NCBI GenBank assembly: GCA_963761035.1
Contig: CAVXFH010000002.1
Location: 2,756,792 to 2,820,791 of the forward strand
Length of the DNA stretch: 64,000 nt
Direction: 5' to 3'
Source of the DNA: an uncultured Gammaproteobacteria bacterium
GTDB taxonomy: Bacteria > Pseudomonadota > Gammaproteobacteria > DRLM01
The notes below the pieces were generated by a model. The model was not told where the DNA came from. It did not search any database and was given only the letters and a program-made list of their open reading frames with translations. A program made the position numbers and the translations under genes. Each line of letters begins with the position of its first letter. Position 1 is the stretch's first letter. This document shows, piece by piece, positions 42,033-60,474 of the stretch.

Positions 42033-42138
42033 TGTGCAGCAAAAAACTCTGTTGGCATCTCGATATTGGGCTTGAAGCGCTCTTAGAGTTTGCTTATCGA
42101 GATGAGCTCTCATCAAGCCCAATTGCGGGGAGAACCGC

Positions 42139-42930: not shown

Positions 42931-42932
42931 TT

Positions 42933-43868: not shown

Positions 43869-44526
43869 CAGTGAGCGGGTAAAGGGAAAGAACTTTAGAA
43901 ATTTTAACGGAAAACCGCTGTTTCGCTGGATACTCGATTCCTTGTTACAAATAGAAGAAATAGACCGGATTGTCATCAATACTGACGCGCGCCACATTTT
44001 GGCAGACAATGGCTTGGTTGACGGTGGTAAGGTGGTAATTCGCGATCGTAGGCCTGAGATTTGTGGCGATTTGGTTTCCATGAATCTGATTATTTCCGAC
44101 GATGTCGAGAATGTAGATGCTGATATCTATCTGATGACGCACACTACAAATCCATTGATGAGCGCGAATACTATAAAGAGTGCGATAAATGCTTTCGAGA
44201 ACGCGGTCTCTGCCGGTATAGCGGATTCACTGTTTACTGTGGATAAGGTACAAACCCGGTTTTACAGGAAAGACGGCACTGCAGTTAACCATGAACCGAA
44301 TAATCTGATCCGCACGCAGGATCTCGAACCCTGGTTCGCAGAAAATTCCAATCTCTATGTTTTTACACGGGAAAGCTTTGCTAAAACAAATGCACGTATT
44401 GGTAAGAAGCCGATGATGTTCGAGAGCCCTAAATTTGAGTCGATTGATATCGATACGCCGGAAGATTGGGACTTGGCTGTCGTTGCCGCCCGATATTTAA
44501 CGGATCGACAGGTCCAAAAGCAATGA
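43828..44526 (+). CDS. Acylneuraminate cytidylyltransferase family (CMP-ulosonate synthetase)
   Basis: LLPMKANSERVKGKN...GKPL, INTD, HTTNP, RTQDL, IDIDTPEDW. Confidence 0.9.
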   Translation: MKRKIIALLPMKANSERVKGKNFRNFNGKPLFRWILDSLLQIEEIDRIVINTDARHILADNGLVDGGKVVIRDRRPEICGDLVSMNLIISDDVENVDADIYLMTHTTNPLMSANTIKSAINAFENAVSAGIADSLFTVDKVQTRFYRKDGTAVNHEPNNLIRTQDLEPWFAENSNLYVFTRESFAKTNARIGKKPMMFESPKFESIDIDTPEDWDLAVVAARYLTDRQVQKQ

Positions 44527-45455
44527 AGGTATTGGTAACCTGTCCACCTATGCTGGGCATGATCGACAGCTTCATACCAATTTTTACACAGCACGGCGTC
44601 GAAGTTACCGCACCTCGCGTCGTGCAAACATTATCAGTAGACAAACTTATAGAGTTTGTGCCCCATCACGATGGATGGATCATTGGCGACGATCCGGCAA
44701 CACGCGAAGTTTTTACTGCTGGTAAAGCCGGAAAGCTAAAAGCAGCCGTGAAATGGGGTATCGGCGTAGACAACGTTGATTTTGCAGCCTGCAATGAACT
44801 GGGTATTCCCATTGTGAATACCCCTAACATGTTTGGCAGGGAGGTTGCTGATATCGCGCTGGGTTATGTCATTGCACTGTCGAGGGAGACCTTTGAGATA
44901 GATCGTGGGGTACGGGCAGGGGAATGGCCCAAGCCCCGGGGGATATCCCTCGCCGCGAAAACAGTGGCGCTGATCGGATTCGGTGATATTGGAAAAAATA
45001 CCGCCAAGCGCCTGTTGGCCGTGGACATGAAGGTGATTGCCTATGACCCTGCCGCAAAGTCATCAGCGGAACTGACCGCAGTTGAAATGGCGACTTGGCC
45101 TATGCGAATTGAAGAGGCCGATTTTATCGTTGTCACTTGCTCCTTAACACCTTCAAGCCGTCACATGCTCAATGACGAGGCCTTTGCCAGAGCAAAGGCT
45201 GGCGTGCGCGTGATAAACGTTGGGAGAGGGCAAGTGGTTGATGAGAATGCGCTTGAGGCTGCTCTCAAAAGTGGCAAGGTCTATTCAGCTGCGCTTGATG
45301 TTTTTGAAATAGAGCCGCTTCCGATTAATTCTTATCTGCGCACTCACCCTCGCTGTGTATTTGGGTCACATAACGCTTCCAATACAGCCGATGCCGTAGA
45401 ATGTACCAGTCGGATTGCAATAGACAAGCTTTTCAGATTATTGGGCATAGTTTGA
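44523..45455 (+). CDS. D-isomer-specific 2-hydroxyacid dehydrogenase (SerA-like)
   Basis: KWGIGVDNVD, GFGDIG, NVGRG, ALDVFEIEP, SHNAS. Confidence 0.88.
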   Translation: MKVLVTCPPMLGMIDSFIPIFTQHGVEVTAPRVVQTLSVDKLIEFVPHHDGWIIGDDPATREVFTAGKAGKLKAAVKWGIGVDNVDFAACNELGIPIVNTPNMFGREVADIALGYVIALSRETFEIDRGVRAGEWPKPRGISLAAKTVALIGFGDIGKNTAKRLLAVDMKVIAYDPAAKSSAELTAVEMATWPMRIEEADFIVVTCSLTPSSRHMLNDEAFARAKAGVRVINVGRGQVVDENALEAALKSGKVYSAALDVFEIEPLPINSYLRTHPRCVFGSHNASNTADAVECTSRIAIDKLFRLLGIV

Positions 45456-45460
45456 TTATT

Positions 45461-46315
45461 ATGTCTGTTAAAGAGGATCAGCGGATTCGAGTCTATCGTC
45501 CCGACAGCAGAGTCAGAGAGGGCGCATTCGCCGCTCTTCGCCATTTATCAGCTGAAATCTGGGGCTTTCGTAGCCATATACGAATTGTATTCGAGGAGGA
45601 GTTTCGCGCCACCTACTCCGGAACAGGGTTAGGCATATTTTGGAACTATGCGCTACCTCTTGTTCCGTTGACTATCTATTGGTTCTTATCTAGGCTACGT
45701 GTTTTTCCAAATTTCGACGGTGTTGATAGCGCAACCTTTCTGACCTTTGGCATAAGCTTGTGGTTCTTCTTTGTTGGCCTCGTCCAAGTGCCGATCCAAA
45801 TTGTGCAATCGCGTAATAAGGAGGCTATGAAAACCGCTTTTCCGTTGAGCGCGTCCATCGTATCGGGGTTTGCTAAATTGCTATTCGATACACTAGTAAG
45901 ACTAGCCCTTGTAACCATTGTTGTCATATCGACAAAGAGCTGGCCAACTTGGCAAGGGCTATTGCTACCATTGGTTTTGTTGCCAGCTTTTATATTTTTT
46001 CTTGGCATAGGACTTGTGCTTGGCATACTTAACGTAATCTACAATGATATCTCTCGTGTTGTGAATATTGCGTTTCAATATGGTATTTTCATCAGCGGCG
46101 TAATATTTCCCCTATCAGATTTTGGCCTATTATCTACATTGAATCAGCTTAACCCTTTTGCAGTTTTTATTAATGTTAGTCGCTCAATCGTCTTTCGGGG
46201 AATACTCGATAACTCATATGCGTACTTGGCAATGTCAGCCGCTGCAGTATTGGTATTCTTGTTTTCAGTCCGCCTGTTCTACATCATGGAATATCGTGTG
46301 AGAGGAATTAGCTGA
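45461..46315 (+). CDS. wzm: Polysaccharide ABC transporter permease
   Basis: Y.GTGLGIFW, about 6 TM segments, DI..V, LNP motif; translationally coupled to wzt. Confidence 0.88.
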   Translation: MSVKEDQRIRVYRPDSRVREGAFAALRHLSAEIWGFRSHIRIVFEEEFRATYSGTGLGIFWNYALPLVPLTIYWFLSRLRVFPNFDGVDSATFLTFGISLWFFFVGLVQVPIQIVQSRNKEAMKTAFPLSASIVSGFAKLLFDTLVRLALVTIVVISTKSWPTWQGLLLPLVLLPAFIFFLGIGLVLGILNVIYNDISRVVNIAFQYGIFISGVIFPLSDFGLLSTLNQLNPFAVFINVSRSIVFRGILDNSYAYLAMSAAAVLVFLFSVRLFYIMEYRVRGIS

Positions 46316-47577
46316 TGTTGACGCAATCCGACACCGTACTGGAAGTGGAACATATCTCCAAACTTTATTCACGGGCTCGAAGCGCAACCCGTCAAAGATT
46401 GACTCGCACCTTTGGATCGACAATCCTAGGACGTTTGCCAACGCCTTTTACTGACCTGCAAAAAGGTGAATTCTGGTCGCTCAAAGACGTAAGTTTTTCA
46501 CTACGGCGGGGAGAGTCGCTGGGTGTTATTGGCTTCAACGGTGCGGGGAAGACAACACTGCTTCGACTTCTTGCGGGGCAACTTTTGCCGGACGAAGGTG
46601 AAATACGTGTACTTGGTAAGACGGCGGCGATGATAGATCTCACTGCTGGCTTTCAGATGACGGCGAGTGGAAGACAGAATATATTTCTTCGCGGCGCAAT
46701 GCTTGCCCGAAGTAAAGAAGAAATTGCCGCAACTTTTGAAGAAATTCTCGATTTCGCAGAACTGGGTGATGCGATCGGCGCACCGGTTGCGACCTACAGC
46801 TCCGGCATGCTCATGCGTCTTGCCTTTTCCATTATGGTGTTCTTGAAGGCAGATATATTTTTTATCGATGAAATTCTTGCTGTTGGTGATTTTCGCTTTC
46901 AGCAGAAATGTCTGGAACATTTCAGGGCCATACGGAAACGGGTCGCTATAATGCTGGTTTCGCACTCTATGTATAGCATTAGATCATTTTGCGATCGAGT
47001 TATTGTTTTACATGATGGCCTTATTACCTTCGAAGGTAAGCCAGAAGACGCGATTCGTGTTTATGAGCAACTGAATAGTCCAAACGCATTACATAAAGAA
47101 AAGGCGCCTAATCAGGTAACGTTCCTTGGGCCACAGTTCCACAATACTCGAGCCATAGAAGAAGTGGAGCATTATTGGTGTGATGCGAATGGAAAACCCA
47201 TCAGCGAGATATGCCTAGGAGATAGTCTATATTGCAAGGTAATCTTCAAAATAAACCATAAAGCTAACAACCTAATTATCGGAGTACCTGTTTGGACAGA
47301 GGAAGGTACATTTTTGACCGGGCTTTCTACCGAACTCCAGAATGTGAGAATGGATGTGGAAGCCGAAAATAAGGTTATCTTCCTCCTCACGGTACCCAAT
47401 ATTGGCTTGAATCCGGGTGTGTATTTTTCTAATGTTAGCATTTTGGATGGTCACGAATTTCTTTACCGCAATAAAAATTCTTCTTTGACAGTTACATCAA
47501 CACGTGGTCGTTTCTGGGGATTGGTAACGATGGAGCATTATTGGCAACGACAAACTTTAGATGCGGAGTTACTTTAA
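46315..47577 (+). CDS. wzt: Polysaccharide ABC transporter ATPase with C-terminal (Wzt_C) domain
   Basis: FWSLKDVSF, GFNGAGKTT, TYSSGM, IDEILAVGD, VSH; about 170-aa C-terminal extension. Confidence 0.93.
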   Translation: MLTQSDTVLEVEHISKLYSRARSATRQRLTRTFGSTILGRLPTPFTDLQKGEFWSLKDVSFSLRRGESLGVIGFNGAGKTTLLRLLAGQLLPDEGEIRVLGKTAAMIDLTAGFQMTASGRQNIFLRGAMLARSKEEIAATFEEILDFAELGDAIGAPVATYSSGMLMRLAFSIMVFLKADIFFIDEILAVGDFRFQQKCLEHFRAIRKRVAIMLVSHSMYSIRSFCDRVIVLHDGLITFEGKPEDAIRVYEQLNSPNALHKEKAPNQVTFLGPQFHNTRAIEEVEHYWCDANGKPISEICLGDSLYCKVIFKINHKANNLIIGVPVWTEEGTFLTGLSTELQNVRMDVEAENKVIFLLTVPNIGLNPGVYFSNVSILDGHEFLYRNKNSSLTVTSTRGRFWGLVTMEHYWQRQTLDAELL

Positions 47578-47838
47578 TGAAGCTGACTGTTTATGCTTCA
47601 TACATACTTCTGGCTAGAAATAGTAGGTGAAATGGGCGGCCCATCGTGCCGTACTGGCAATGTTGAATCTGTGATTATCTAGAAGTAGATAATGGTTGCG
47701 TGGATACAAGGCAGCTGAGGCGTCCCACAGTATAAGCGTAGGGACATCCATCGCGCCCTGTCTCGAGGCGGCAATGTGCCCCGAGTGTTCTTGACGCCTC
47801 TTTATGGAATTCTTGTGTTTGCATATATGAGGTCGATT

Positions 47839-48570
47839 ATGTTTGACTTTATTCGTAAAAAAGATGTTTGGGATGCCTGTGATAAGGGCTACCTAGACGA
47901 ATTAAAGAGCAAAAACATTTCCTACCAACTAAAGAATGCACAAGATTTGGCGATTTACCGCCTTATTAGAGACTTGCAGGGACTTGAAATTGCTGAAATA
48001 GGTGGAGGTAATTCAAGGATATTGGAATGTGTAACAAAGAATAATAGATGCACTAATATCGAAAAGTTTGAAGGGAGAGATTTGGGGCCAGTTGGAGAAA
48101 TAAAACTAAAAGATATTACAAATATAGATGCATACATTGGAGATTTTGATCCTAGAATATCAGATTGCTCATTTGATCTGATATTTTCAATCTCTGTAGT
48201 GGAGCATGTTGAAACTGAACGTCTTGCTGATTTCTATCGAGACTCACTCCGCATCCTGAAACCTGGCGGAAAATTTCTTCACGCCATAGATATATATATT
48301 CAAGACACCCCAACCAATTACAACATAGAAAGATATAAAATCTACAGGAATTGGGTGACAGCCAATCATATGGTGGCTCCAATAGGTAAAATTTATAATG
48401 GCCATCTCGATTTTATGCCTGATATGGCATCCAATCCGGACAACATCCTATATGGTTGGAATAAAATGGTTCCTTTGCTGAGTGAAGTTCGAGCAATATC
48501 CCAAAATGTCTCATTAATTGTTGGGGCCAAAAAAATTGAATCTAATGATTGGAATCCAATCCATGAATAA
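47839..48570 (+). CDS. Class I SAM-dependent methyltransferase
   Basis: EIGGG, FDLIFSISVVEH, RILKPGG. Confidence 0.85.
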   Translation: MFDFIRKKDVWDACDKGYLDELKSKNISYQLKNAQDLAIYRLIRDLQGLEIAEIGGGNSRILECVTKNNRCTNIEKFEGRDLGPVGEIKLKDITNIDAYIGDFDPRISDCSFDLIFSISVVEHVETERLADFYRDSLRILKPGGKFLHAIDIYIQDTPTNYNIERYKIYRNWVTANHMVAPIGKIYNGHLDFMPDMASNPDNILYGWNKMVPLLSEVRAISQNVSLIVGAKKIESNDWNPIHE

Positions 48571-49405
48571 ATTTTTAAGTATTCACGATGCAAGCCTTTT
48601 CTTAAAAAATGGCGGAGACGGTATTTATAATATAGCCAAGCATGACGGCGGATTGTGTATTGATGGCGGCGCCGCTGCCGGCTATGTAACAAAAATACTG
48701 CTCCAATCCAGCTCTTGCTATGTTCTAGCTTTCGAACCTTTTCCAGGGAATATTCCACATTTCCTTAAAACTGTCGGAGACAGCAAAAATTACACACTTT
48801 ATCAAAAAGCATTAGGACGATTTACAGGTAATTCCAATTTCTACGTGAGCCGTACAGTCGACGGCAACCAACCTGGCTGGAATCATTTGCAAGGGTATTC
48901 GTCTGAAGGTTATTTAGTTGCAGACGACCAGGAATCAAAGAAGGGCACGCATTTGGTTGTCGATGTTGTGCGATTAGATGACTACATTACCGATAACATA
49001 ACCTTGCTCAAGCTAGATTTGCAAGGCGGCGAATATGACGCTCTTTGCGGCGCAGGAACTAAACTTGAAAAAGTTAGATACTGTTATATTGAGTTTTCTC
49101 TAGACTGGAGATCTCTCGAACTCCTTACATCGAATGAATTTATTATATTTGATACTCAATATACTGGCATACCAAAGATTCCCATTGAAAGTCTGGATGG
49201 AGTATTTGAAAACGCGAATGTAATAAATTTATCTAATGGATACAAGGCAGTGTCAGGAATTATCCGCGGACTCCCAAGGGATTTGCATAGCTATCGTGAA
49301 TTTCTTGAAAATTTCAAGTCGAGATATTTTTACCATTTATGGTCAGATATCATCGCTGTAAACAACAGGTATTTAAGTAATTTCATTATTTCCGCGATTA
49401 GGTAA
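48563..49405 (+). CDS. FkbM family methyltransferase
   Basis: IDGGAAAG, AFEPFP, RLDD, LKLDLQGGE. Confidence 0.87.
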   Translation: MNKFLSIHDASLFLKNGGDGIYNIAKHDGGLCIDGGAAAGYVTKILLQSSSCYVLAFEPFPGNIPHFLKTVGDSKNYTLYQKALGRFTGNSNFYVSRTVDGNQPGWNHLQGYSSEGYLVADDQESKKGTHLVVDVVRLDDYITDNITLLKLDLQGGEYDALCGAGTKLEKVRYCYIEFSLDWRSLELLTSNEFIIFDTQYTGIPKIPIESLDGVFENANVINLSNGYKAVSGIIRGLPRDLHSYREFLENFKSRYFYHLWSDIIAVNNRYLSNFIISAIR

Positions 49406-49421
49406 ATTCGATTTTATTATT

Positions 49422-52400
49422 ATGAAACCTTCTCCAATATTAAGCATTGCAATTCCCGCATATAATAGACCATTTGAATTGAAATACTGCCTCGATCGTT
49501 TTGTTGCCCAGATTATAGGTAAATATGAAAATGAAATTGAGATAATAATTAGCGATGACAGTTCTCCAAACGATAGCCTGAAAGATATTCGAAAAATTGC
49601 CGAGCGATACTCATTTATTAGATACAGAAAATATGCCGATAATATCGGCCTAGAAAAAAATTTAATCAAGTGTGCTGATGAGTGTATTGGAGAGTATTTG
49701 TGGATATTTGGTGATGACGATTTTCTTGAGCAAGATGATGGGCTTGATTATGTAATGAGTTTATTGCGCGAGGGTAAATACGAATTCTATGTGCTTAATA
49801 GAGTACGAAGGAATTCTAATCTCTCTAAGCTGATCTCAAATAACTGGATGCGACTTGATGCCGCGAAAACTTATGCCTTTTCCGGATTACGTGAATTCTG
49901 TGTGAGGCATGGCTTTATCAGCATTATTGGTTTTATATCTGTCAACATTTTTCGACGATGTCCATTTCAAGAGATTGATGCATCCAAGTATTTTGGAACC
50001 ATGTACCCGCAACTCGGCGCCATGGTTGAAGCTTTCTATGATAAGAAAACACTTCTGGTGGGCCGCCCTCTTGTCTGTCACAGAACACAAACCATTGATG
50101 AAAAAAAGGCAGCATTGGGTAATAAGCGCGCTGAATCGGATTTTATGGCGGATGTTAAACTAAGAAATGCAATTTACTTTAGCCATCCCTATATAAAGAT
50201 GCTTTCTGAGCTTATAAGCAGAGGGGCTTTTCTACCTGAGGATATTATACGAATTCCGGAGAATACGGTAATCAATGGGCTGCTCATTGATTTTCTTATT
50301 CAAACTGTTGCACTTAGTCAGGAATTACATGTAGGCGTTGATTCTGAGGCTTGGAGGAATACTAGAAAATTCTTTGATGCTTTACCGCTCGATTCGGCAA
50401 GACGCAAGCAGATTGAAGTACTATTTGCAAAACAGTTCGATGTTCCCCGAACGTATTCAGTTGCAGAGATTTCGACTCATAGAGTCGATGGTCATGAATT
50501 AACTATTTCAGTAATCTCTCCGAGCTTTAACCAGGCTGAGTTTCTAGCGGAATGCCTGTCATCTGTTCGTGATCAGACCTACAAGCCCCTAGAACATCTC
50601 GTATTTGATCCAGGTTCACATGATAGAAGTCGCAATATTGCTGCGAGCTATCCTCATGTAACACTCATCACCGAACCAGACTCTGGCCAGTCTGATGCTA
50701 TAAATAAGGGCTTATTGCGCGCTCGCGGTGATATCATTGCTTGGCTTAACTCAGATGATTGCTTTGCTCACTCGAAAGTTTTCGAGCTAATTGTCCAACG
50801 CTTTTTACAGGCGGATGCGCCAGATATTGTGTATGGAAGAGGAATTTACATCAATGAGACTGGTGAGAAGCTGCGGGATGTCTACATAAATAAGGACCCT
50901 GCATCTCTGAGTTGGCGTTTTCAACAAGAAGATGGAATTTTGCAGCCCGCACTTTTTATGCGAAGAAGCGTAATTGAACGCGTCGGTCTTCTGCGTAACG
51001 ATCTTCATTACTGCATGGATTACGAGTATTGGATTAGATGCGTGAAGGCTGGAATTAAGTTTGTGTATTTAGACAAGGTTCTGGCAAATGCTCGCTATCA
51101 CATCAGCAACAAAACCTACGGAATGCGAGGAAAAAGCTATTCCGAAGTTTGTGACATGATGAGGGAACATTTCGGATATGTTAATCATACTTGGATAAAG
51201 CGCTATGCTGAATTCCTGGTAGAGGGATACGATGGCGTACTTATGCACGCCGGAAATGCCATTGTTAGAGATGTTGATAATTTTGATATAGCCTATCGAA
51301 AATTGCTTTTAGCTTACAATGGTTCTCATGATACCTACCACCTGCTGGAGCATGGGGCTTCCAAGAAAGGGCTAGGAGATACTCTACGAGAAATGACGAC
51401 ATTAGGGATCAAGCCTCTGGTACCTTGTAAAGAAATCCCCACTGAGCAAGTTCAAGCGCCAGGCTGTATTCCTTATACTGTAGGTACTAGGAGGTGGGCA
51501 TACGATGCAAAATGGAAAGCGGTGCAAATCGCCAGGACACATGAATTCTTTCGAGATCGCATAGCTCATCGCTGTCGCGATACCTGTGTCATCGTTGGCA
51601 ATGGCCCGAGCTTAAATAAAACGAATTTGTCTCTGCTGAAGGATCAAGATGTCATCGTTTCCAACAATGCATTCTTGAGTCCTGAACTTCTTATGTATGC
51701 GACTTACTATACTGTAGTTAATTATCTTGTAGCAGAGCAGAGCTCTCAACACATTAACAGATTGGAGGGTGTACATAAAGTTTTACCCTATTGGCTGGCA
51801 TATTGCTTGAATCCTGACCAGGATACCTACTTTGTAGATGCGGTTGGTCGCGCAGAATTCAGCAAAGACATTTTTAATAATATGTCATGGCGACATACTG
51901 TTACTTTTTTTAACTTGCACCTTGCATATGGGCTTGGATATCGCAGGGTGGTGATGATTGGGTTTGATCATGGCTATAAACAGCCGAATAGCATTGTGGA
52001 ACAGGATGTTATTCAAAGCTACGAGGACGACGAAAATCATTTTCATCCAGGCTATTTCCGTGGCAAAAAATGGCAAGCAGCCGATGTTGGGAAAATGGAA
52101 GAAATGTACCTTCTCGCTAAAATTGGATTTGAGGAAGATGGTCGCACAATCATCAATGCCACGGCTGGTGGCAAATTAGAACTCTTTCCTAGGATGCCTC
52201 TGGAGCAAGCATTGAAGCTCGGTCAAGTTCGTAAAAATATTCCTTTGCTTCATTCAACCCCTGCGATAGCTATTCCTAAAATCGGGCCATTCTTGCGAAG
52301 CGTGCATGCTCACTGGGATGAATCTAATGGGATCGCCGAGTTATTTTCGGAAAAACTGTCTGGCACAATGATTGATGTAGGTGCCCATTATGGTTCAGCA

Positions 52401-53705
52401 CTCTTTCCATTCCTAAACAAGAGTTGGAAAATTTTCGCATTCGAGCCAGATGACAAGAACCGTCACGAGTTGCTAGTACACCTTTCGAAACATGAAAACA
52501 AGGAATTGGTTACACTTGACGCACATTGCGTGAGCAATGAAACCAAGAAGGGAGTCTCATTCTATCGTTCCGAACAGAGTACGGGTATTAGCGGTCTATC
52601 GTCCTTTCACGAAAGCCATATCGAGGCACAGCGGGTGGATACCGTTTCACTAGCTGATTATTTCCAAGACAAGCCTATGCCTGCGGTCGATTTCCTCAAG
52701 ATCGATACCGAGGGGCATGACTTATTCGTGCTACAGGGTTACCCATGGGATCACGACAAACCGGCGGTGATTGAGTGCGAATTTGAGAACGCCAAATCTG
52801 TTCCTCTTGGTTATACCTACCATGACCTTGCACGATTTCTGGTGGGCAAGGGTTATACAGTTTATGTTAGCGAATGGCATCCCATTATCCGCTACGGTAT
52901 TCGTCATGATTGGAACCGACTGATGCATTACCCTTGCGAATTGTCCGACCAAAATGGTTGGGGAAATCTACTCGCATTCCGCGATCCCATTGATGAGAAA
53001 CATATCATTACAGCAGTTCGCAAGGTACTTAAGATTGATAGAAGCAACCCGGAACATATAATGGATGAACGAATTAATACCGCATCTCAGCTTGATAAGA
53101 CAATGAGTAAAAATCAAGAAATATCTGTGAGAAATTATAAAAGATTAAAATATTTGTATAATTGTTTTGCTGTATGGGCTAGAGATAATCACCCTTTGGT
53201 GTTTCGTGCTGGGCAATTTATTACGAGATTGCTACGGTTCATTAAACGAAATGCCATTCTTATATCAACATTGCTTGTTATTGCATTCGCGTTAATAATA
53301 TTTCCTATGTTTATACAATTAGAGCCTAATGAGCTAATCTTTTGGTATTTTTCAGGTCTGTTTATTATTATGATGGTATTTGCCGTCTTAGGAGCGAGAA
53401 CGCTCGTAACGTTAAGGTTACGAAGCAGTCAGCTCTCCAGCAAGCAAGACCAGTTCTCCAACAAGCAGGACCAGCTCTCCAGCAAGCAGGACCAACTCTC
53501 CAGCAAGCAGGACCAGCTCTCCAGCAAACGGACCAGCTCTCCACAAACAGGACCAACTCTCCAGCAAACAGGACCAGCTCTCCAGCAAGCAGGACCAGCT
53601 CTCCAGCAAGCAGGACCAGCTCTCCAGCAAGCAGGACCAGCTCTCCAGCAAGCAGGACCAGCTCTCCAGCAAACAAGATCAGATATCATCCAATTTTGCT
53701 TTTAA
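49422..53705 (+). CDS. Multidomain glycan enzyme: GT2 + GT2 + DUF115/MptE-like (sialyltransferase-like) + FkbM methyltransferase + 2 TM + heptad repeat; apparently frameshifted inside the repeat and continuing into 53737-54432
   Basis: LSIAIPAYNR...WIFGDDD; ISVISPSFNQ...WLNSDD...CMDYEYW; VIVGNGPSL...MIGFDH; IDVGAHYG...LKIDTEGHD; two hydrophobic helices near 53250-53390; QLSSKQD repeats. Confidence 0.9.
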   Translation: MKPSPILSIAIPAYNRPFELKYCLDRFVAQIIGKYENEIEIIISDDSSPNDSLKDIRKIAERYSFIRYRKYADNIGLEKNLIKCADECIGEYLWIFGDDDFLEQDDGLDYVMSLLREGKYEFYVLNRVRRNSNLSKLISNNWMRLDAAKTYAFSGLREFCVRHGFISIIGFISVNIFRRCPFQEIDASKYFGTMYPQLGAMVEAFYDKKTLLVGRPLVCHRTQTIDEKKAALGNKRAESDFMADVKLRNAIYFSHPYIKMLSELISRGAFLPEDIIRIPENTVINGLLIDFLIQTVALSQELHVGVDSEAWRNTRKFFDALPLDSARRKQIEVLFAKQFDVPRTYSVAEISTHRVDGHELTISVISPSFNQAEFLAECLSSVRDQTYKPLEHLVFDPGSHDRSRNIAASYPHVTLITEPDSGQSDAINKGLLRARGDIIAWLNSDDCFAHSKVFELIVQRFLQADAPDIVYGRGIYINETGEKLRDVYINKDPASLSWRFQQEDGILQPALFMRRSVIERVGLLRNDLHYCMDYEYWIRCVKAGIKFVYLDKVLANARYHISNKTYGMRGKSYSEVCDMMREHFGYVNHTWIKRYAEFLVEGYDGVLMHAGNAIVRDVDNFDIAYRKLLLAYNGSHDTYHLLEHGASKKGLGDTLREMTTLGIKPLVPCKEIPTEQVQAPGCIPYTVGTRRWAYDAKWKAVQIARTHEFFRDRIAHRCRDTCVIVGNGPSLNKTNLSLLKDQDVIVSNNAFLSPELLMYATYYTVVNYLVAEQSSQHINRLEGVHKVLPYWLAYCLNPDQDTYFVDAVGRAEFSKDIFNNMSWRHTVTFFNLHLAYGLGYRRVVMIGFDHGYKQPNSIVEQDVIQSYEDDENHFHPGYFRGKKWQAADVGKMEEMYLLAKIGFEEDGRTIINATAGGKLELFPRMPLEQALKLGQVRKNIPLLHSTPAIAIPKIGPFLRSVHAHWDESNGIAELFSEKLSGTMIDVGAHYGSALFPFLNKSWKIFAFEPDDKNRHELLVHLSKHENKELVTLDAHCVSNETKKGVSFYRSEQSTGISGLSSFHESHIEAQRVDTVSLADYFQDKPMPAVDFLKIDTEGHDLFVLQGYPWDHDKPAVIECEFENAKSVPLGYTYHDLARFLVGKGYTVYVSEWHPIIRYGIRHDWNRLMHYPCELSDQNGWGNLLAFRDPIDEKHIITAVRKVLKIDRSNPEHIMDERINTASQLDKTMSKNQEISVRNYKRLKYLYNCFAVWARDNHPLVFRAGQFITRLLRFIKRNAILISTLLVIAFALIIFPMFIQLEPNELIFWYFSGLFIIMMVFAVLGARTLVTLRLRSSQLSSKQDQFSNKQDQLSSKQDQLSSKQDQLSSKRTSSPQTGPTLQQTGPALQQAGPALQQAGPALQQAGPALQQAGPALQQTRSDIIQFCF
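53430..53679 (+). repeat. Coding tandem repeat, 12 units of consensus CAGCTCTCCAGCAAGCAGGAC (21 bp)
   Basis: Units counted directly; units 5 (53514-53533) and 6 (53534-53553) are 20 nt, the other ten are 21 nt; a degenerate 13th unit follows (53680-53700). Confidence 0.95.
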
Positions 53706-53736
53706 TTCTTCCGATTTTCAATCTTTCAATCGGCGC

Positions 53737-54432
53737 TTGAGGAAGGAACATGTTGATCTTTTTCTGAATGAGTGGGCGGATAAATTAGGCCTCAAATTAA
53801 CACCAAGATCTCTTGCATATTTAGCTCATCGTATTTGTACATTGGAACAGATATGCAAGGGGCGTATTGCCACGAGCATTGAAAATATGGTTTTGCGAGT
53901 ATTAGTTTCTTCCGCAGTAAGAAAGAATAAATTACGGGTTCTGGAGATAGGAACCTTATTCGGAATTGGATTAGCCGCAATATATGAATATTGCAGCCCA
54001 CGTTTTGAAGAGGTACGGCTCGCCGCAATTGATCCACTCGATGGATATTATGGAAAAGGTGCTCGAGATATTATTACAGATGAACCGATTAGCGAAATGA
54101 CATTCAAAACGAATTTTAAGATGGCAGGCATACCGGAAGATGAATATTCTCTTATTACAGCTATGAGCTCTGAGTCCTGTGCGATTGAAGCGGCAAATTT
54201 GAATCAATGTGATGTTTTAATTATTGATGGAGATCACACATATGAAGGAGTGAAGACAGATTTCGAGTATTACTGGAAAGCTGTTAACTTTGGAGGATAC
54301 ATAATTTTTGACGACTATGATTCATCTGAATGGCCAGATATAAAGAAATATGTAGATGAAGCAGTTATCGGCAAGGATGGATTGATTCTTGTGGGCGCTA
54401 GTTTCCGTTCCGCGGTTTTCAAAGTTGTTTGA
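53737..54432 (+). CDS. Class I SAM-dependent methyltransferase (Methyltransf_24-like); probably the C-terminal domain of the 49422 gene
   Basis: LEIGTLFG, IDP, IDGDHTYEGVKTDF, GGYIIFDDY; TTG start with no clear RBS, and its frame is open upstream through repeat units 7-12. Confidence 0.85.
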   Translation: MRKEHVDLFLNEWADKLGLKLTPRSLAYLAHRICTLEQICKGRIATSIENMVLRVLVSSAVRKNKLRVLEIGTLFGIGLAAIYEYCSPRFEEVRLAAIDPLDGYYGKGARDIITDEPISEMTFKTNFKMAGIPEDEYSLITAMSSESCAIEAANLNQCDVLIIDGDHTYEGVKTDFEYYWKAVNFGGYIIFDDYDSSEWPDIKKYVDEAVIGKDGLILVGASFRSAVFKVV

Positions 54433-54619
54433 CATAAACTCTATAAATATTTTCCATAATTAAGCCATATCTAAAAATTCGATCCTGTCGGATGGTTAAG
54501 AGCAAGATAGCTAGAATGCGGAACTTACACGGTGTAAATGGGAACATTGATCATGCTGCAGCCCGTAGGTATAGTTTCATTGGATATTCTATAGTGTCTA
54601 TTGGCCGAGTCTGGAAAAA

Positions 54620-55378
54620 ATGAATACAAGTAATAGAAGATCTGCGTTGATAACAGGGTGTAACGGTGGTATTGGTAAGGTGCTATGCCAGGAATTCAGA
54701 TCCGCAGGCTACTCGGTAATTGGCTCAGATATACAAGCGAAAGAGGAGACAAACTGCGATCTTTATCTTCGCTGTGATTTGATGGAGCTTGTGTCTAATA
54801 CTAAAACACGGAAATGGTTCCAGGATGCTGTAAGCAGTTTTGCTGGCAAACAGGCCGCCCCTTTACAAGCAGTCATTAACAATGCAGCCTATCAGGTTGT
54901 CAAGCCTATACGAGATTTGTCAATTACCGAATTCCAATCATCCCAGCAAATCAATCTAGTTGCTCCGTTTGTGCTGACGCAGCTTTTCGAGTCTTCTCTT
55001 AGGGAAGCGGAAGGCAGCATTGTAAATATCGGTAGTATCCATGCCCGGTTGACTAAGCCCGGGTTTTGTTCATACTCCACCTCTAAAGCAGCCCTTTCAG
55101 GGTTAACCAGAGCATTGGCGCTAGAATTTTCCGGGGAAATTACAGTTAATACCATCCTGCCGGCCGCAACTAGAACGGAGATGTTACTCGCAGGGTTTAG
55201 CGAGCATCAGGAAAAATATGCGGAACTGGAATCCTATCACCCGGTAGGCCGAATTGCTGAGCCGAGAGAAATTGCGCGCCTGGCACTGTTTCTCTGTTCA
55301 GAAAGTGCGCGTTTTATCAACGGCTCGGAGATTCCTATCGATGGGGGAATAGGAGGACGTTTGCATGATCCGGCTTGA
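54620..55378 (+). CDS. SDR family oxidoreductase
   Basis: TGCNGGIG, NNAA, NIGS, YSTSK, IPIDGG. Confidence 0.92.
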   Translation: MNTSNRRSALITGCNGGIGKVLCQEFRSAGYSVIGSDIQAKEETNCDLYLRCDLMELVSNTKTRKWFQDAVSSFAGKQAAPLQAVINNAAYQVVKPIRDLSITEFQSSQQINLVAPFVLTQLFESSLREAEGSIVNIGSIHARLTKPGFCSYSTSKAALSGLTRALALEFSGEITVNTILPAATRTEMLLAGFSEHQEKYAELESYHPVGRIAEPREIARLALFLCSESARFINGSEIPIDGGIGGRLHDPA

Positions 55379-56177
55379 TGGAGCGTTACGGCCTGGTGGT
55401 CGGCTGGATCGTTTCAATATTTACAGGATTGGTGCTCGCCTTATATTGGACAGACTCGTTTGGGATATTTCTTTTCAAGCTAGAAAGCAGCGTAAGAAGC
55501 TGATGGCGCTGCGGAACGCTCATATAGGTGAAAAGTCCATTATTCTGTGCAACGGCCCGAGTTTGGTTGATGTCGACTTTTCTAGTATTGGCGATATCTT
55601 TACCTTTGGGCTGAACAAGATCAATCTTCTTTTCGATGAAATAAAGTTCAGACCCTCCGCCATTGTTGCTGTTAATCCATTTATAATCGAACAAAACGCG
55701 AAATTCTTTTCAGAAACTGACCTTCCTCTATTCCTGGATCAAGAAGCTAACCATTTCGTTATTCCTCCTCGCGACAATATCATATTGCTGCATTCTTGCA
55801 ATATTCCATACTTTGCGCGCGACTGCTCCCTAAGTATCTTTCAAGGCTATACTGTCACCTATGTGGCCCTCCAGATTGCATATCACATGGGTTTTAGCAA
55901 GGTTGCACTTGTTGGTTGTGATCATGACTACTACTCAGTTGGTACGCCAAACGTCATAGGCTATAATGAAACCAAAGATATAGGCCATTTTTGTGATGAT
56001 TATTTCTCTCCGAAGCAACCTTGGCAATATCCGGATTTGAAGGCAAGCGAATATTATTACGACTTGGCCAGGCGTAGTTATGAATTCGATGGACGAATGA
56101 TTGTCAATGCTAGTACTAAGACCAAACTTGATGTATTCCCTATGATGCATTTAGATGACTTTATACATGATGAATAA
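55365..56177 (+). CDS. DUF115/MptE-like (Maf / sialyltransferase-like) protein
   Basis: ILCNGPSL, FGLNKI, TVTYVALQIAYHMGFSKVALVGCDH; paralogous to domain 3 of the 49422 protein. Confidence 0.8.
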   Translation: MIRLDGALRPGGRLDRFNIYRIGARLILDRLVWDISFQARKQRKKLMALRNAHIGEKSIILCNGPSLVDVDFSSIGDIFTFGLNKINLLFDEIKFRPSAIVAVNPFIIEQNAKFFSETDLPLFLDQEANHFVIPPRDNIILLHSCNIPYFARDCSLSIFQGYTVTYVALQIAYHMGFSKVALVGCDHDYYSVGTPNVIGYNETKDIGHFCDDYFSPKQPWQYPDLKASEYYYDLARRSYEFDGRMIVNASTKTKLDVFPMMHLDDFIHDE

Positions 56178-56364
56178 GCCCATCGCTTCATGAAAGTCAA
56201 TAAATCAACAGATAAAATATTCTGCTACTCAAAAGCATTGACGGTTGTGAGATGATATTTATTGTATCGACATAGAGAGACGGTTGTGTGTTTCAGTTGT
56301 ACGTGGCACACATTTTAACTTTGTTCTCTCTCAGTAATTATCAGTAAGGGCAGGAAACAATTTC

Positions 56365-57252
56365 TTGGCTGTCTCTCCGAAATTATCAGTGGTTGTTGCT
56401 GTGTTAAATGGCGCGGAGCATATTGAAAGATGTATTGTGAGTTTTGCCAAACAGACCTTTGTTGCCAAGGAATTGATAATCATTGATGGTGGCTCGACAG
56501 ATGGAACGATTGAGATTCTAAAGAAGTATGAAGCTAATATATCGTTTTGGGAATCACAACAGGACTCTGGGATTTCATCTGCATGGAACAAGGGGTTATC
56601 ACATGCAACTGGAGAATGGATTTGTTTCTTAGGTGCAGACGATCATATCTATGATAACAACGTATTTGAGAGAATGAGTCCGCATCTTGTGAATGCATGT
56701 CCACATTATAGTATTGTCTATGGAAAAGTATCGTTGGTTAACAAGAAGGGTTTGTTATTAGGCATCTTTGGCGAGCCGTGGGAGCGGATGAGGGGCTCAT
56801 TTGTCGGAGGTAAGGATTTATATATTCATCAAGCGATGTTTCACCATCGCAGTCTGTTTGATAGATATGGTGAGTTTGATGAATCTTTTCAGATTGCTAG
56901 CGATTATGAATTCTTGCTGCGAGAACTGATAAATAATGATCCGCTATACGTTCCGCAGACTGTGACTGTGATGCAGTATGGCGGCCGAAGCTCCAGCCCC
57001 ATGGAAAGATCAAGGTGTATAAATGAGATAATAAGGGCCAGGCGTATGCACGGTCTTACAGATGGCGAGTCGGCCTTATTCTTGGCGCGACTACGCGCTG
57101 GAGTGCATGCGATGTTATACAGGTTAGCCGGTCGTCGTATAAGTTCATTCGTGGCCGATGGTTACAGATTGCTGGTAGGCAAGGACAAGCTCTGGACTCG
57201 TGATACTTCCAGAAGCGTAGATATCAGTGAAGGTCAACGGAAAGACCAATGA
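56365..57252 (+). CDS. GT2 glycosyltransferase
   Basis: SVVVAVLNG, IIDGGSTDGT, DSGISSAWNKG, FLGADD, HQA, DYEF. Confidence 0.92.
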   Translation: MAVSPKLSVVVAVLNGAEHIERCIVSFAKQTFVAKELIIIDGGSTDGTIEILKKYEANISFWESQQDSGISSAWNKGLSHATGEWICFLGADDHIYDNNVFERMSPHLVNACPHYSIVYGKVSLVNKKGLLLGIFGEPWERMRGSFVGGKDLYIHQAMFHHRSLFDRYGEFDESFQIASDYEFLLRELINNDPLYVPQTVTVMQYGGRSSSPMERSRCINEIIRARRMHGLTDGESALFLARLRAGVHAMLYRLAGRRISSFVADGYRLLVGKDKLWTRDTSRSVDISEGQRKDQ

Positions 57253-58244
57253 GAGTAGCAATGGTTACCGGCTCTTATCCGCCGGATATATGTGGTGCCG
57301 GGGATTATACGGCTCGACTTGTTGAAGCTTTGAGTGCTCGTGATGTAGCGGTGGAGGTGGTGACCGGATGCGACTGGGGTGCGGCTGACTTAATTACTTT
57401 GTTGCGGCGTATTAATGCGGGTCGGTTTGATGTGGTTCATATTCAGTATCCAACAGTGGGTTACGGTCGCAAGCTTGGTCCCCATTTGGCTGCTTTAATT
57501 CAGCGCAGTGTGGTAACGCTTCACGAGGCCAGTCAAAGTCATTTTTTCAGAAGACTATCGCTCTATTTTTTTCTGCTGGCGCGGCATATCATTTTTACCA
57601 ATTCCCATGATCTGGATTATGTCTCGAGACTTGCGCCATGGGTGCGCAGGCGTTCAAGCGTCATACCTATAGGTAGCAACGTACGTGTAGCTGCATCTGA
57701 CCGAAATCTTCGCGACATAGTGTATTTTGGCCTGATTCGACCGAAGAAGGGTTTGGAAGATGTCCTTGCATTGGCTGCCTTGATTAAAGAGCGACGCGGG
57801 GACCTAAAGGTCCGGATTATCGGGGCACCAATGCCAGAGCATGCTGAATATTATAAGCAATTACGGGCCAGCGCCAACTCACTTCCGGTCATCTGGGAGG
57901 AAGGTCTGACACCCATGGAAATCGCGGTCTTGCTGAGCCGCGCCAGGATTGGCTACCTTCCTTTTCCGGACGGAGCCTCAGAGCGCCGCGGTTCATTGAT
58001 AGCGCTCCTCGCGAATGGTGTGGCGACAATAACAACAAGGGGTGCTCACACACCCAGCGGGATGTCGGGCATCGTAGAGTTCGCGCCATCTCCGCAAGAT
58101 GCACTATGTTGCATCGAGCGTCTTAATGCAGATGAAGGTTACCGTTTACGGCTCGAAAGGTCTGCGTCGAATTATGCTCAAGGCTTCGACTGGGGGGGCA
58201 TTGCCGACGAGCATATAAAAATATATCAAAAAATTACGCAGTGA
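57249..58244 (+). CDS. GT4-like (GT-B) glycosyltransferase
   Basis: YPPDICGAGDY, HIQYP, TLHE, YFGLIRPKKGLE, GASERRGS. Confidence 0.87.
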   Translation: MRVAMVTGSYPPDICGAGDYTARLVEALSARDVAVEVVTGCDWGAADLITLLRRINAGRFDVVHIQYPTVGYGRKLGPHLAALIQRSVVTLHEASQSHFFRRLSLYFFLLARHIIFTNSHDLDYVSRLAPWVRRRSSVIPIGSNVRVAASDRNLRDIVYFGLIRPKKGLEDVLALAALIKERRGDLKVRIIGAPMPEHAEYYKQLRASANSLPVIWEEGLTPMEIAVLLSRARIGYLPFPDGASERRGSLIALLANGVATITTRGAHTPSGMSGIVEFAPSPQDALCCIERLNADEGYRLRLERSASNYAQGFDWGGIADEHIKIYQKITQ

Positions 58245-58331
58245 ATGCAATGTGTCCGATAATAAATGCTCAGTATTCAAGCGCCAATAATAACACAGAC
58301 ACATCCGTGCTAAGTCCATAAAATATTGTTT

Positions 58332-59420
58332 TCATGGTGTAGCCTGTTCGTGCCTTGAAGATTTATGAATATTTTTCCGATGGACAAGAAGCCGTTCCTG
58401 CTGCTTGCTTTGAACATGTGCGCGTCGCTCTAAACCTATATAAGCGATAACTGGTACGGGGTTTCTTCTTTCGGAAATAATCGATGGGCGAGGTAAGGAT
58501 TCTCCAATAAGGTGTTTCCGAAATGGCCGTCTTACTAATTCTCTTGCGGCGAGCATGAAGAATCGCAACCAGGCCGCTCCGGTTACGATAGCCATTAATG
58601 GAACGGGGTACTGATGCTTAAAGAATTTGCGGTAAAACCTGACCATTCCGCGGTGCATGTGATAGAGAACTCGTATAGGACGATCTTTGCTGCAGGCGCC
58701 TTTATAGTGAATAATGTCAATATCCGGCACGAACAAAACCTTCCAATTGTTCTGGCGAAATCGCATGCACCAGTCGATGTCTTCGCAATGCATAAAGTAC
58801 TCGTCATCCAACAGTCCTACTTGCTCTACAGCTTTGCGGCGCACCAGCATGAAGGCTCCCGAGATGGCCTCAACCGGCTCGGGTTTCGAAGGAAGCGGTT
58901 CCTGATGAAGAAGAAAGGTGCGAAAGCGAGGGTTTTTTGGAAATATTTTATTTAGGTGAAGTACTCGAACAAGGCTGCGCCATGGCGTGGGGACGGCGCG
59001 CCGGCAGCCGGCTTGTTCACTGCCATTAGGGTTATGAATCAGGCAGCCGGCCATGCCGGCGTCGGGGCTGTTATCCATGACATCCAGCATTCGAGAGAGG
59101 GTGTCCGGTTGGATAATGCAGTCGGGGTTTAAGAGTAGTATGTAATGGCCTTCGGCTTGCTTAAGCGCGATGTTGTTCGCCCGGCTAAAACCAAGGTTGG
59201 AGCCATTGGAAATAATGTGGACCCGACGATCCTTACCGAATGCCTTATAGATCGCATTGAGGCTGCCGTCAGTGGAGCCATTGTCGGAGATTAACAACTC
59301 AACCGGTATCGTAGAGGCAAGGGCTGCAGCCGCCGCTTCGAGTAGTAGCGGGCCACCATTGAAATTGACAATGATAATGGAGACCGGCTTGGCCGATTTT
59401 TCCCTGCTAATATGAATCAC
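58332..59420 (-). CDS. GT2 glycosyltransferase (WbbL/rhamnosyltransferase-like)
   Basis: SIIIVNFN, DNGSTDGS, NLGFSRANN, LLNPD, ISGAFML, YFMHCEDIDWC. Confidence 0.9.
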   Translation of the reverse strand: MIHISREKSAKPVSIIIVNFNGGPLLLEAAAAALASTIPVELLISDNGSTDGSLNAIYKAFGKDRRVHIISNGSNLGFSRANNIALKQAEGHYILLLNPDCIIQPDTLSRMLDVMDNSPDAGMAGCLIHNPNGSEQAGCRRAVPTPWRSLVRVLHLNKIFPKNPRFRTFLLHQEPLPSKPEPVEAISGAFMLVRRKAVEQVGLLDDEYFMHCEDIDWCMRFRQNNWKVLFVPDIDIIHYKGACSKDRPIRVLYHMHRGMVRFYRKFFKHQYPVPLMAIVTGAAWLRFFMLAARELVRRPFRKHLIGESLPRPSIISERRNPVPVIAYIGLERRAHVQSKQQERLLVHRKNIHKSSRHEQATP

Positions 59421-59789
59421 TTTAACTTCCTTATGCAGGTACTACTCTCTGATTTGTCGTAAAATTTTACAGGTAATATGAAGCCGTGGCAACCTATTCG
59501 TCCCCACGCTTCGGTAAAACTAATCTGGATGATCAACCGCTGACTAAATGCATTATGCAGGGTTTCTATATGAGGTGGGGTAATGTTTAAGAATTTACCC
59601 TTGGTATGGTTTCTCTGAGAGAAATTTATATTTATATCAATATATTATAGCCTGATTTTGCTATTATGGTTCTGTTGGTAAGGGGCAGGTTATCTGATTA
59701 GCAGAGGGGTTACGACGTGAGTTTATATAGAGGTGGATACCGATCCATTGTTGCTTACTTGCACAACCCGCGATATTCAGGAAAGATTC

Positions 59790-60458
59790 ATGCAAAAAAA
59801 TGAGGTTGTGGTTTTACCGGTTACACCGAACTATATAAACGATCTATGGGCCCTGCTAGGTGCTTTGGCCAAGGATAAATCAGTACTAAATGTGGGAGCC
59901 GCCGGGAATGTGGAATATTACCTGGATGGGCGTCGTGAATTATGGATGCATGACCAGCTGAAGACTCTCGCGAGTGGTGTGGTAGGGCTGGATATCGATG
60001 AGGAAAGCGTGAGATATGCCAATGCTCATGGCGAAAACATCACATTGGGGAACTGCGAATCTATCCAGTTAGGGCAAAAGTTCGATTTGGTCGTGCTGAG
60101 TGAAGTCATTGAGCATGTAAACGCCCCGGTCATGGCTATAGATAATCTCGCGCGCCATCTGAAACCCGGGGGTAAAATATTTATCACGACACCAAACCCA
60201 ACCCACTACGGAACGGTACTGCGCGCGCTGCTTTTCCGTTCACAGAGTATCTATTACGATCATGTTGCTGCGTTCTTTCCGGAGAACTTGGTGGTTGTCT
60301 GCCGGCGCCTCGGCCTGAGAGTCTCGGGAATTCATTACTATAATGTAGTGGACAGGCGGACAGCGAACATGAGATTCCGCTCCTTTCTGGCGCGTCAAGT
60401 CGGTCGTGTATTCCACCGCTTCAGCAGTAACTTTATATTCATCATCGACGCGCCCTGA
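59790..60458 (+). CDS. Class I SAM-dependent methyltransferase
   Basis: VLNVGAAG, GLDID, FDLVVLSEVIEH, LKPGG, TTPN. Confidence 0.9.
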   Translation: MQKNEVVVLPVTPNYINDLWALLGALAKDKSVLNVGAAGNVEYYLDGRRELWMHDQLKTLASGVVGLDIDEESVRYANAHGENITLGNCESIQLGQKFDLVVLSEVIEHVNAPVMAIDNLARHLKPGGKIFITTPNPTHYGTVLRALLFRSQSIYYDHVAAFFPENLVVVCRRLGLRVSGIHYYNVVDRRTANMRFRSFLARQVGRVFHRFSSNFIFIIDAP

Positions 60459-60474
60459 GCCCGGTTGACTAACT

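Follow-up and report, generated by a model that had tools for sequence, protein, structure and literature searches.

Does a 5-kb gene that is broken in two in the genome assembly of an uncultured gammaproteobacterium encode the polymerase, the ruler and the terminator of a surface glycan in a single chain? The question is raised by positions 49422 to 54432 of contig CAVXFH010000002.1 in the numbering of the window, by which we mean the whole stretch of 64,000 nucleotides analyzed here (positions 2,756,792 to 2,820,791 of the contig, in a genome of 3.05 Mb on 2 contigs). Two open reading frames (ORFs) listed in this region meet at a 21-nt tandem repeat. Judged from their sequences, ORF1 and ORF2 are pieces of one ancestral gene. 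We see a little better than an even chance that the 1670-aa ancestral protein was a polymerase-ruler-terminator resembling WbdD and WbbB, which acted at the cytoplasmic face on a glycan exported by an ATP-binding cassette (ABC) transporter. The elements that carry the argument are these:

49422-53705, + strand: ORF1 of the open reading frame list, 1427 aa, with the polymerase half, a transmembrane (TM) hairpin and the first repeats
53430-53679, + strand: twelve 21-nt units encoding QLSSKQD-type heptads (Tandem Repeats Finder, unit-by-unit location)
53514-53553, + strand: units 5 and 6 of the repeat, each 20 nt long, that is, the two 1-nt deletions splitting the gene (unit starts, sequence)
53554-54432, + strand: frame-1 continuation of 292 aa, with six heptads, a conserved helical lead-in and a Methyltransf_24/TylF-like O-methyltransferase (Pfam, AlphaFold2 [AF2] model)
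53737-54432, + strand: ORF2 of the open reading frame list, 231 aa, TTG start

Tandem Repeats Finder (TRF) reports 11.7 copies of a 21-nt period at 53430-53672, with 93% matches and a score of 416. Since units 1 to 6 start at 53430, 53451, 53472, 53493, 53514 and 53534 and units 7 to 12 at 53554, 53575, 53596, 53617, 53638 and 53659, units 5 and 6 are 20 nt each. Solely these two 1-nt deletions separate ORF1 from ORF2: the frame shifts from 0 to 2 to 1, and arithmetic on the coordinates places ORF2 in frame +1 relative to ORF1. Frame 0 encodes QLSSKQD-type heptads through unit 4, ORF1 is out of frame from unit 5 on and acquires a tail containing GPALQQA, and the same heptads resume in frame 1 past both deletions, where they are followed by QISSNFAFNSSDFQSFNRRLRKEHVDLF and then by the methyltransferase domain. 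An ORF finder perceives this continuation only from the TTG at 53737. The first-pass annotation had proposed that two bases missing from the repeat split a single frame; the unit locations and the sequence agree with this, and restoring the bases gives a protein of 1670 aa ((5011+2)/3 - 1). The repeat at 53430-53679 is open in all three frames (QLSSKQD, SSPASRT and ALQQAGP), so that translation shifted within the array would reach the end of the repeat instead of terminating immediately. Programmed frameshifting and an alternative genetic code were considered and rejected: the two deletions lie in neighbouring units and do not resemble a slippery site, and homologues are intact without any recoding.

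Our conclusion that one ancestral gene was present rests on a motif upstream of the TTG, on fused homologues and on the uninterrupted Pfam order found elsewhere. A lead-in common to close homologues (...FNF.DYQ.FNRRL..H.D.L..EW..KL.L...P.SLAYLAHRIC.LE) starts upstream of the TTG of ORF2. It comprises the N-terminal motif of the methyltransferase domain, [YF]Q.FNR.L..., which a product starting at the TTG would lack and which is retained in all 14 of the 14 short homologues that are not obviously fragments. Furthermore, among the 119 ORF1 homologues listed, of 245 matches in all, 33 end in a domain that is 36-56% identical to the frame-1 piece. The same order of Pfam domains runs without interruption through the homologues P0022 (1721 aa) and P0029 (1917 aa) and through an open frame of 1841 aa in Hyphomonas sp. 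BRH_c22 (locus L017, 5381-10906). Hyphomonas chukchiensis BH-BN04-4 (locus L015) likewise possesses an intact orthologue. The search for homologues with the glycosyltransferase block and the terminal methyltransferase in one ORF, suggested by the first-pass annotation, has thus been run with a positive outcome. The order of five catalytic domains, which the first-pass annotation did not recognize from characterized proteins, is not a rarity: the architecture recurs in many public genomes and metagenomes, in all of which it is uncharacterized.

In the restored protein two modules of glycosyltransferase family 2 (GT2) are followed by an MptE/DUF115-like domain, an FkbM domain, the TM hairpin, the heptad repeat and Methyltransf_24, an order already stated by the first-pass annotation and in agreement with Pfam and with the alignment of a paralogue:

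49452-49760, + strand: first GT2 module, residues 11-113; PF10111 (Glyco_tranf_2_2), 32.2 bits, and PF00535
50508-51083, + strand: second GT2 module, residues 363-554; PF00535, 150.9 bits, and PF13641, 43.4 bits (362-554)
51474-52205, + strand: MptE/DUF115-like domain, residues 685-928; weak PF01973 match and homology to a paralogue
52374-52856, + strand: FkbM-type methyltransferase domain, residues 985-1145; PF05050, 60.9 bits
53256-53390, + strand: TM hairpin, residues 1279-1297 and 1305-1323; Kyte-Doolittle means over 19 residues of 2.77 and 2.46
55365-56177, + strand: paralogue of the third domain, encoded by a separate MptE-like ORF; PF01973, 34.5 bits (cut-off 34.6)

The match to PF00535 (Glycos_transf_2) lies above the cut-off and extends over two stretches, the best being 363-521, and solved GT2 chains (9omh and others) match ORF1 at E 1.7e-14 in a phmmer search of the chains in the Protein Data Bank (PDB). 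The FkbM domain (Methyltransf_21) scores well above its cut-off of 22.7 bits. For the third domain, the earlier assignment to DUF115 is supported by one line of evidence and weak by the other: PF01973 (MptE-like) is matched over only 34 residues (716-749) with 30.3 bits, below the cut-off of 34.6, while all 244 residues of 685-928 are 28% identical (E 4e-22) to the MptE-like ORF at 55365-56177. By features, its neighbours in the ESM Atlas (scores 0.93-0.94) are clusters of MptE-like proteins. One of these clusters carries PF27901, a family named WaaZ_KDO_III, on 13% of its members, and PF27901 is also among the precomputed Pfam matches of ORF1 (P0001) and of most homologues. As a lead only, the domain can be put forward as a candidate transferase of the type using ulosonic acids activated with cytidine monophosphate (CMP).

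The positive-inside rule states that positively charged flanks of membrane segments face the cytoplasm, which is also where nucleotide sugars and S-adenosylmethionine are found. The hairpin is flanked by RLLRFIKRN and RTLVTLRLRSS, with Arg and Lys at both ends, and its short loop (QLEPNE) is acidic; because of this distribution of charges both halves of the protein are predicted to be cytoplasmic. Hydropathy and flanking charges thus concur with what had been proposed at first pass, and the hairpin is kept in fused homologues. The period of seven residues in the repeat that follows is exact, and the six in-frame heptads (residues 2-46 of the frame-1 piece) are modelled by AF2 as one helix with values of the predicted local distance difference test (pLDDT) of 91-97. 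Of the coiled coil originally proposed for this repeat, the helix is predicted, and the packing is questionable, with hydrophobic residues at 3.4 of 8 a/d positions. A prediction of a two-copy complex of the 292-aa piece (score 0.00, mark 0.42) is evidence neither way.

The domain at the far end is a class I methyltransferase by profile and by fold. The frame-1 piece matches PF13578 (Methyltransf_24) with 52.1 bits against a cut-off of 26.3 and PF05711 (TylF) with 24.6 bits against 23, and the weak Pfam matches of the domain are to TylF and to the rhamnosyl O-methyltransferase/CmcI family. Built on an alignment of 62 sequences, the AF2 model (pLDDT 94.5, predicted template modelling score [pTM] 0.86) consists of a helix followed by a Rossmann-type methyltransferase. 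Among the acidic columns of these 62 sequences, no variation is seen at D225, D227 and D236 and hardly any at D253 and D254; presumably these residues have a role in metal binding. Conserved acidic residues also mark an IDGDH motif in the domain. In keeping with a class I methyltransferase fold, Foldseek finds 355 PDB matches at E ≤ 0.001, headed by MeT1 of Mycobacterium hassiacum (6g7d; E 2.7e-10, TM-score 0.71 normalized to the target, 15% identity). Mg-dependent O-methyltransferases come next, and the sugar O-methyltransferases CalS11 and MycE appear lower down. According to PMC9883506, MeT1 methylates the end of methylmannose polysaccharide and its oligosaccharides. By position, C-terminal and behind the spacer, the domain of the window protein is far from both the polymerase and the membrane.

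Hairpin, spacer and methyltransferase constitute a module of a large protein family. With the frame-1 piece as query, 2782 cluster representatives are found at E ≤ 1e-3 and 395 at E ≤ 1e-30, and a search of genome contigs gives matches spanning Alpha- and Gammaproteobacteria, Cyanobacteria, Chloroflexota, Planctomycetota and Opitutales. The methyltransferase domain is nearly always C-terminal, in proteins of 220-2747 aa. In a pooled set of 170 proteins carrying it, the tail beyond the domain exceeds 60 aa only once, 88 proteins have at least 1200 aa, and 140 possess an upstream hydrophobic segment, at a distance of 38-770 aa (median 153) from the core of the domain. Spacer composition was evaluated for 136 of the 170, with spacers shorter than 35 aa and proteins lacking the hydrophobic segment excluded. 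Pro and Gly together make up 3.4% of these spacers as opposed to 10.8% of the rest of the protein, and the occupancy of a/d positions by hydrophobic residues exceeds that of shuffled sequences with z > 2 in 95 spacers and z > 3 in 71, z being negative in 7. The family module can thus be described as a TM hairpin, a proline-poor, heptad-periodic spacer and a methyltransferase, and the ruler idea of the first-pass annotation fits spacers that vary in length across the family and keep their heptad period.

Several close relatives have tandem repeats of their own in the spacer: P0123 contains about seven QKLNQLD-type heptads, P0122 has repeats of the KQEQFAS type, and the spacers of P0129 and P0125 are built from longer units. 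On the level of DNA, arrays with periods of 21, 42 or 63 nt occur in or at the spacer in 8 of 37 genome loci (a period-21 array that lies outside the gene in locus L013 is left out of this count); in Hyphomonas sp. BRH_c22 the array has 7.1 copies of 42 nt at 93% identity. A model of P0125 (798 aa, from FkbM to the C-terminus) shows the FkbM fold, a disordered linker (224-275, pLDDT below 50), short helices, a helix of 127 residues (334-460) that continues from the membrane segment, a break, a second helix of 56 residues (467-522) and the methyltransferase; its pTM of 0.44 allows only secondary structure to be read, so that no collinearity of the two helices is implied. By sequence comparison, the module is found both on its own and joined to polymerases of different kinds. 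The best C-terminal homologue, P0122 (1672 aa, 56% identity), has Glyco_trans_1_2 and no GT2 matches in its N-terminal half, from which we infer that the cassette of FkbM, hairpin, spacer and methyltransferase has been shuffled between polymerases. In P0003, P0005 and P0009, the homologues nearest to ORF1 (about 1430 aa), the hairpin, spacer and methyltransferase are replaced after FkbM by a Pro/Ala-rich linker and a domain of about 200 aa lacking a Pfam match, perhaps a second type of C-terminal module for this polymerase.

The gene is linked with a glycan exporter, which lies about 1.8 kb upstream on the same strand:

45401-46315, + strand: Wzm, ABC-2 membrane subunit of the glycan exporter; PF01061 (ABC2_membrane), 52.9 bits
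46315-47577, + strand: Wzt, ATPase with a C-terminal extension of carbohydrate-binding type; PF00005, 72.5 bits, and PF14524

Residues 289-406 of Wzt match PF14524 (Wzt_C) with 48.3 bits (cut-off 30.4), in line with the extension noticed at first pass. This linkage recurs in other genomes. We surveyed the 37 of 80 loci that match at E ≤ 9e-41 (L009-L042, L050, L052 and L054), excluding the 43 weaker ones; 20 of the 37 have open frames of at least 1100 aa. A Wzt-like match is present in 23, four times as a short generic ATPase. An extended Wzt lies within 10 kb of the gene in 19 loci (18 proteins of 410-465 aa and one cut at a contig end), and Wzm is also present in 17.

The upstream part of the cluster contains, in this order, lapB, pyrF, manC and rmlBDCA, then genes for a hydrolase of the metallo-beta-lactamase (MBL) fold, a GT2 protein, a cytidylyltransferase and a 2-hydroxyacid dehydrogenase. 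It continues with wzm, wzt, two stand-alone methyltransferase genes, the giant gene, a gene for a short-chain dehydrogenase/reductase, the MptE-like ORF and more glycosyltransferase genes. The glycan is probably a methylated O-polysaccharide containing rhamnose or mannose. The whole ABC-transporter glycan cluster (41000-60000) has a GC content of 0.36-0.48, compared with about 0.58 in the flanking backbone. Together with the absence of the methyltransferase piece from four genomes of the same genus, this suggests that the cluster was acquired horizontally.

The reading that in our view best accommodates these features takes the window protein to work by analogy with the coiled-coil ruler terminators WbdD, WbbB, ORF6 of Klebsiella pneumoniae O7 and ORF7 of K. 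pneumoniae O4. The N-terminal half (two GT2 modules, the MptE/WaaZ-like domain and FkbM) would build and decorate an undecaprenyl-linked chain at the membrane, where the hairpin would anchor the protein with both of its ends in the cytoplasm. The helix rising from the second TM segment, with twelve QLSSKQD heptads or 84 residues, would measure about 12 nm if straight and would hold a sugar O-methyltransferase of Mg-dependent type at its tip. Capping would be restricted to chains whose length allows them to reach this distal enzyme, and the cap would stop elongation and be recognized by the C-terminal domain of Wzt for export. According to PMC11231755, a study of Klebsiella O4 and O7, every characterized terminator of an ABC-dependent O-antigen is placed at the distal end of a coiled coil, the length of the spacer determines that of the chain in O9a/O3 and O12, polymerase modules are flexibly distributed among proteins, and the C-terminal domain of Wzt reads the terminal cap in the model systems.

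The logic would be that of WbdD and WbbB, realized by unrelated parts in the opposite order. A phmmer search of all PDB chains (E ≤ 0.01), among which we take the WbdD and WbbB structures to be, yielded generic GT2 chains only for ORF1 and nothing for the C-terminal piece; by sequence the window protein is a member of neither family. WbdD, the kinase-methyltransferase of E. coli O9a and Klebsiella O3 that works with the polymerase WbdA, likewise holds a methyltransferase away from the membrane on an extended helix, likewise belongs to a system with Wzm and a Wzt carrying a C-terminal domain, and its spacer length sets chain length (PMC11231755 and PMC3482155). As described there, however, its catalytic domains are N-terminal and a C-terminal amphipathic helix binds the membrane, whereas in the window protein the hairpin comes first and the enzyme is C-terminal. 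Furthermore, WbdD has a kinase and a separate polymerase, while the window protein has a fused polymerase and no kinase; its methyltransferase is Methyltransf_24/TylF-like, and no WbdD is among the fold matches listed. WbbB of Klebsiella O12 and Raoultella terrigena shares with the window protein the combination of polymerase and terminator in one chain with a helical spacer in between. It has an N-terminal beta-Kdo (3-deoxy-D-manno-oct-2-ulosonic acid) glycosyltransferase as terminator and a C-terminal polymerase of two glycosyltransferases, with neither a TM hairpin nor methyltransferases.

Nearest in content is ORF6 of K. pneumoniae O7, a single coiled-coil protein with a methyltransferase terminator and two GT2 rhamnosyltransferase modules, whose cluster, like that of the window protein, includes rml genes and wzm/wzt (PMC11231755). 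By that description it is set apart by an N-terminal terminator, a kinase, a carbohydrate-binding module and a methyl-phosphate cap, and it has none of the TM hairpin, FkbM domain and MptE-like module that are all present in the window protein. MeT1, the 1-O-methyltransferase of methylmannose polysaccharide, resembles the distal domain in fold and methylates a saccharide end (PMC9883506), but it is a soluble protein of 220 aa that acts at the reducing end, has neither spacer nor membrane anchor, and was not found by sequence search.

Several observations weigh against a polymerase-ruler-terminator. The gene is broken as assembled. The window heptad has one Leu per seven residues, and its a/d occupancy of 3.4 of 8 compares with a family median of 5.5 and reaches a z of only 2.1, so a lone helix or a weak polar zipper is conceivable in place of a stiff coiled coil. 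Sequence similarity to the solved WbdD and WbbB chains is absent from the phmmer search described above. The proteins most similar to the polymerase half (65-72% identity; for example in Synechococcus sp. BA-120), with about 1430 aa each, end in another domain and have no hairpin, spacer or methyltransferase, and hence the polymerase can work without the module. In 14 of the 37 loci no Wzt is found in the DNA examined around the gene, and since the methyltransferase piece was not found in the four same-genus genomes, its conservation by descent is unsupported. Finally, the cluster offers other candidate capping enzymes, namely the FkbM domain, a stand-alone FkbM protein and a Methyltransf_11 protein, and the two MptE-like modules with the cytidylyltransferase are candidate cap makers as well. 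The weak hydrophobic seam and the module-free polymerases, along with the several other methyltransferases in gene and cluster, which suggest that in-chain O-methylation is common, would suit a C-terminal methyltransferase that decorates the chain and does not terminate it. The helix would then be a tether or an oligomerization element, and chain length would be set otherwise, for instance by the ratio of polymerase to exporter. We regard this as unlikely, given that the spacers span a 20-fold range of lengths and yet remain heptad-periodic, with repeat periods of 21, 42 or 63 nt. Variable but heptad-phased spacers fit selection on length rather than a fixed docking element. Moreover, the module is accompanied by a Wzt with the C-terminal domain that reads terminal caps in model systems (PMC11231755). 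Still less probable, in our estimation, is a ulosonic-acid (Kdo-like) cap added by the MptE/WaaZ-like module, with the distal methyltransferase acting on that residue or elsewhere. Such a cap would be in keeping with the MptE-like nature of the third domain and of the ORF at 55365-56177, with PF27901 among the P0001 matches and with the PseF/KdsB-like cytidylyltransferase at 43828-44526. Maf/DUF115 enzymes are reported to use CMP-nonulosonic acids or CMP-Kdo, and Kdo is a known terminator that caps the Klebsiella O12 and O4 antigens (PMC11231755). The MptE-like domain, however, lies in the membrane-proximal half, whereas every characterized terminator is described as distal to the spacer; its internal Pfam scores are below the cut-off, and no ulosonic-acid synthase was recognized among the window ORFs scanned.

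A separate matter is whether the two deletions exist in the organism. An assembly error in the repeat is the somewhat more probable explanation, and a real, recent disruption has an appreciable but smaller chance. Were both deletions real, there would be a truncated polymerase with a GPALQQA tail and at most an orphan, N-terminally clipped methyltransferase; termination would be uncoupled from the ruler or lost, and the gene would be recently inactivated or in a phase-off state, again with a probability short of even. The assembled sequence does show both breaks, the low-GC island, whose methyltransferase piece was not found in the four same-genus genomes searched, has the appearance of a dispensable, exchangeable O-antigen locus, and the three open frames of the repeat mean that a shifted product would still be made. 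Yet real deletions would require two independent 1-nt losses 20 nt apart in a 5-kb gene that is otherwise intact and whose 292 downstream codons are open and give a model with a pLDDT of 94.5, a pattern improbable for decay and typical of consensus errors in a tandem repeat. Neither deletion falls within a homopolymer run such as those that mediate phase variation, and the TTG at 53737 has no Shine-Dalgarno-like sequence before it. Moreover, in 21 of 27 stand-alone relatives (360-599 aa) the TM segments remain with the methyltransferase, whereas the break in the window falls past the hairpin. The array is the only short-period tandem repeat of high identity among 17 TRF rows for the whole genome, which therefore holds no second short-period array against which frame-breaking indels could be compared. 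Because this sole short-period repeat is the site of the break and the rest of the gene and the downstream domain are intact, a consensus error is favoured over decay. A search of sequencing runs found only three, all soil metagenomes from two studies, with word shares of 0.10, 0.07 and 0.06, and four short contigs from them could be placed on the gene (53331-53485, 53569-53619, 53869-54019 and 54199-54400) with 0 or 1 differences each; they leave 53486-53568, including both deletions, uncovered and speak for neither explanation. The matching contigs do indicate that the organism or a very close strain occurs in the sampled soils.

Two further gene sets of the window deserve mention. Just upstream of wzm, 42139-45455 encodes the MBL-fold hydrolase, the GT2 protein, the cytidylyltransferase and the 2-hydroxyacid dehydrogenase, the last of phosphoglycerate type:

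43828-44526: PseF/KdsB-like cytidylyltransferase

By their sequences, these genes and the two MptE-like modules hint at an unusual CMP-activated acidic sugar or a glycerate-type substituent, for which no synthase was recognized among the ORFs scanned. Downstream, a second set of polysaccharide genes (59733-63741) comprises a Wzx-like flippase (60475-61770), a GT4 protein of the PEP-CTERM/XrtA type and two more methyltransferases. Adjacent loci of this organism may thus direct the synthesis of an ABC-exported and of a Wzx-dependent glycan.

To our knowledge, the control of chain length by a coiled-coil ruler has been established for a few enterobacterial O-antigens, all of which have an N-terminal terminator and a peripheral membrane contact. 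A survey of terminators linked to Wzt domains was reportedly published by Mann, Kimber and Whitfield in 2019 (Glycobiology 29:822). In the literature searched, neither the layout nor the family found here is described, although that survey in Glycobiology and the supplements of PMC11231755 may list it. FkbM together with O-antigen and coiled-coil terms was not found among the matches listed, and WbdD or WbbB combined with heptad or tandem repeats returned unrelated work only, again among the matches listed. Whereas the ruler principle is known, a membrane-anchored layout of polymerase, ruler and terminator is thus undescribed in the literature searched.

The family is large, phylogenetically broad and uncharacterized throughout. 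It seems to reach the logic of a ruler by another construction, with an integral hairpin, a helix of variable length and a C-terminal TylF/MeT1-like O-methyltransferase. The most intriguing lead is provided by the recurrent 21-nt-phased repeats. Spacers have repeatedly been built from DNA repeats with periods in multiples of 21 nt (21 nt x 12 in the window, and the 8 of 37 loci), and on this basis one may speculate, with little confidence, that the ruler is a contingency element in which slippage adds or removes whole heptads and so retunes chain length while helical phase is kept. Under the same speculation, indels in the array such as the two in the window would switch capping off. If this were true, the length of O-antigens would be tuned, as by a dial, through a spacer that is heritable and evolves rapidly. 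If the polymerase-ruler-terminator reading itself is true, the natural spacers built from repeats would form a test series for spacer length against chain size, a simple sequence signature would become available for predicting capped, length-controlled glycans in environmental bacteria, and the ruler principle would extend beyond the current models.

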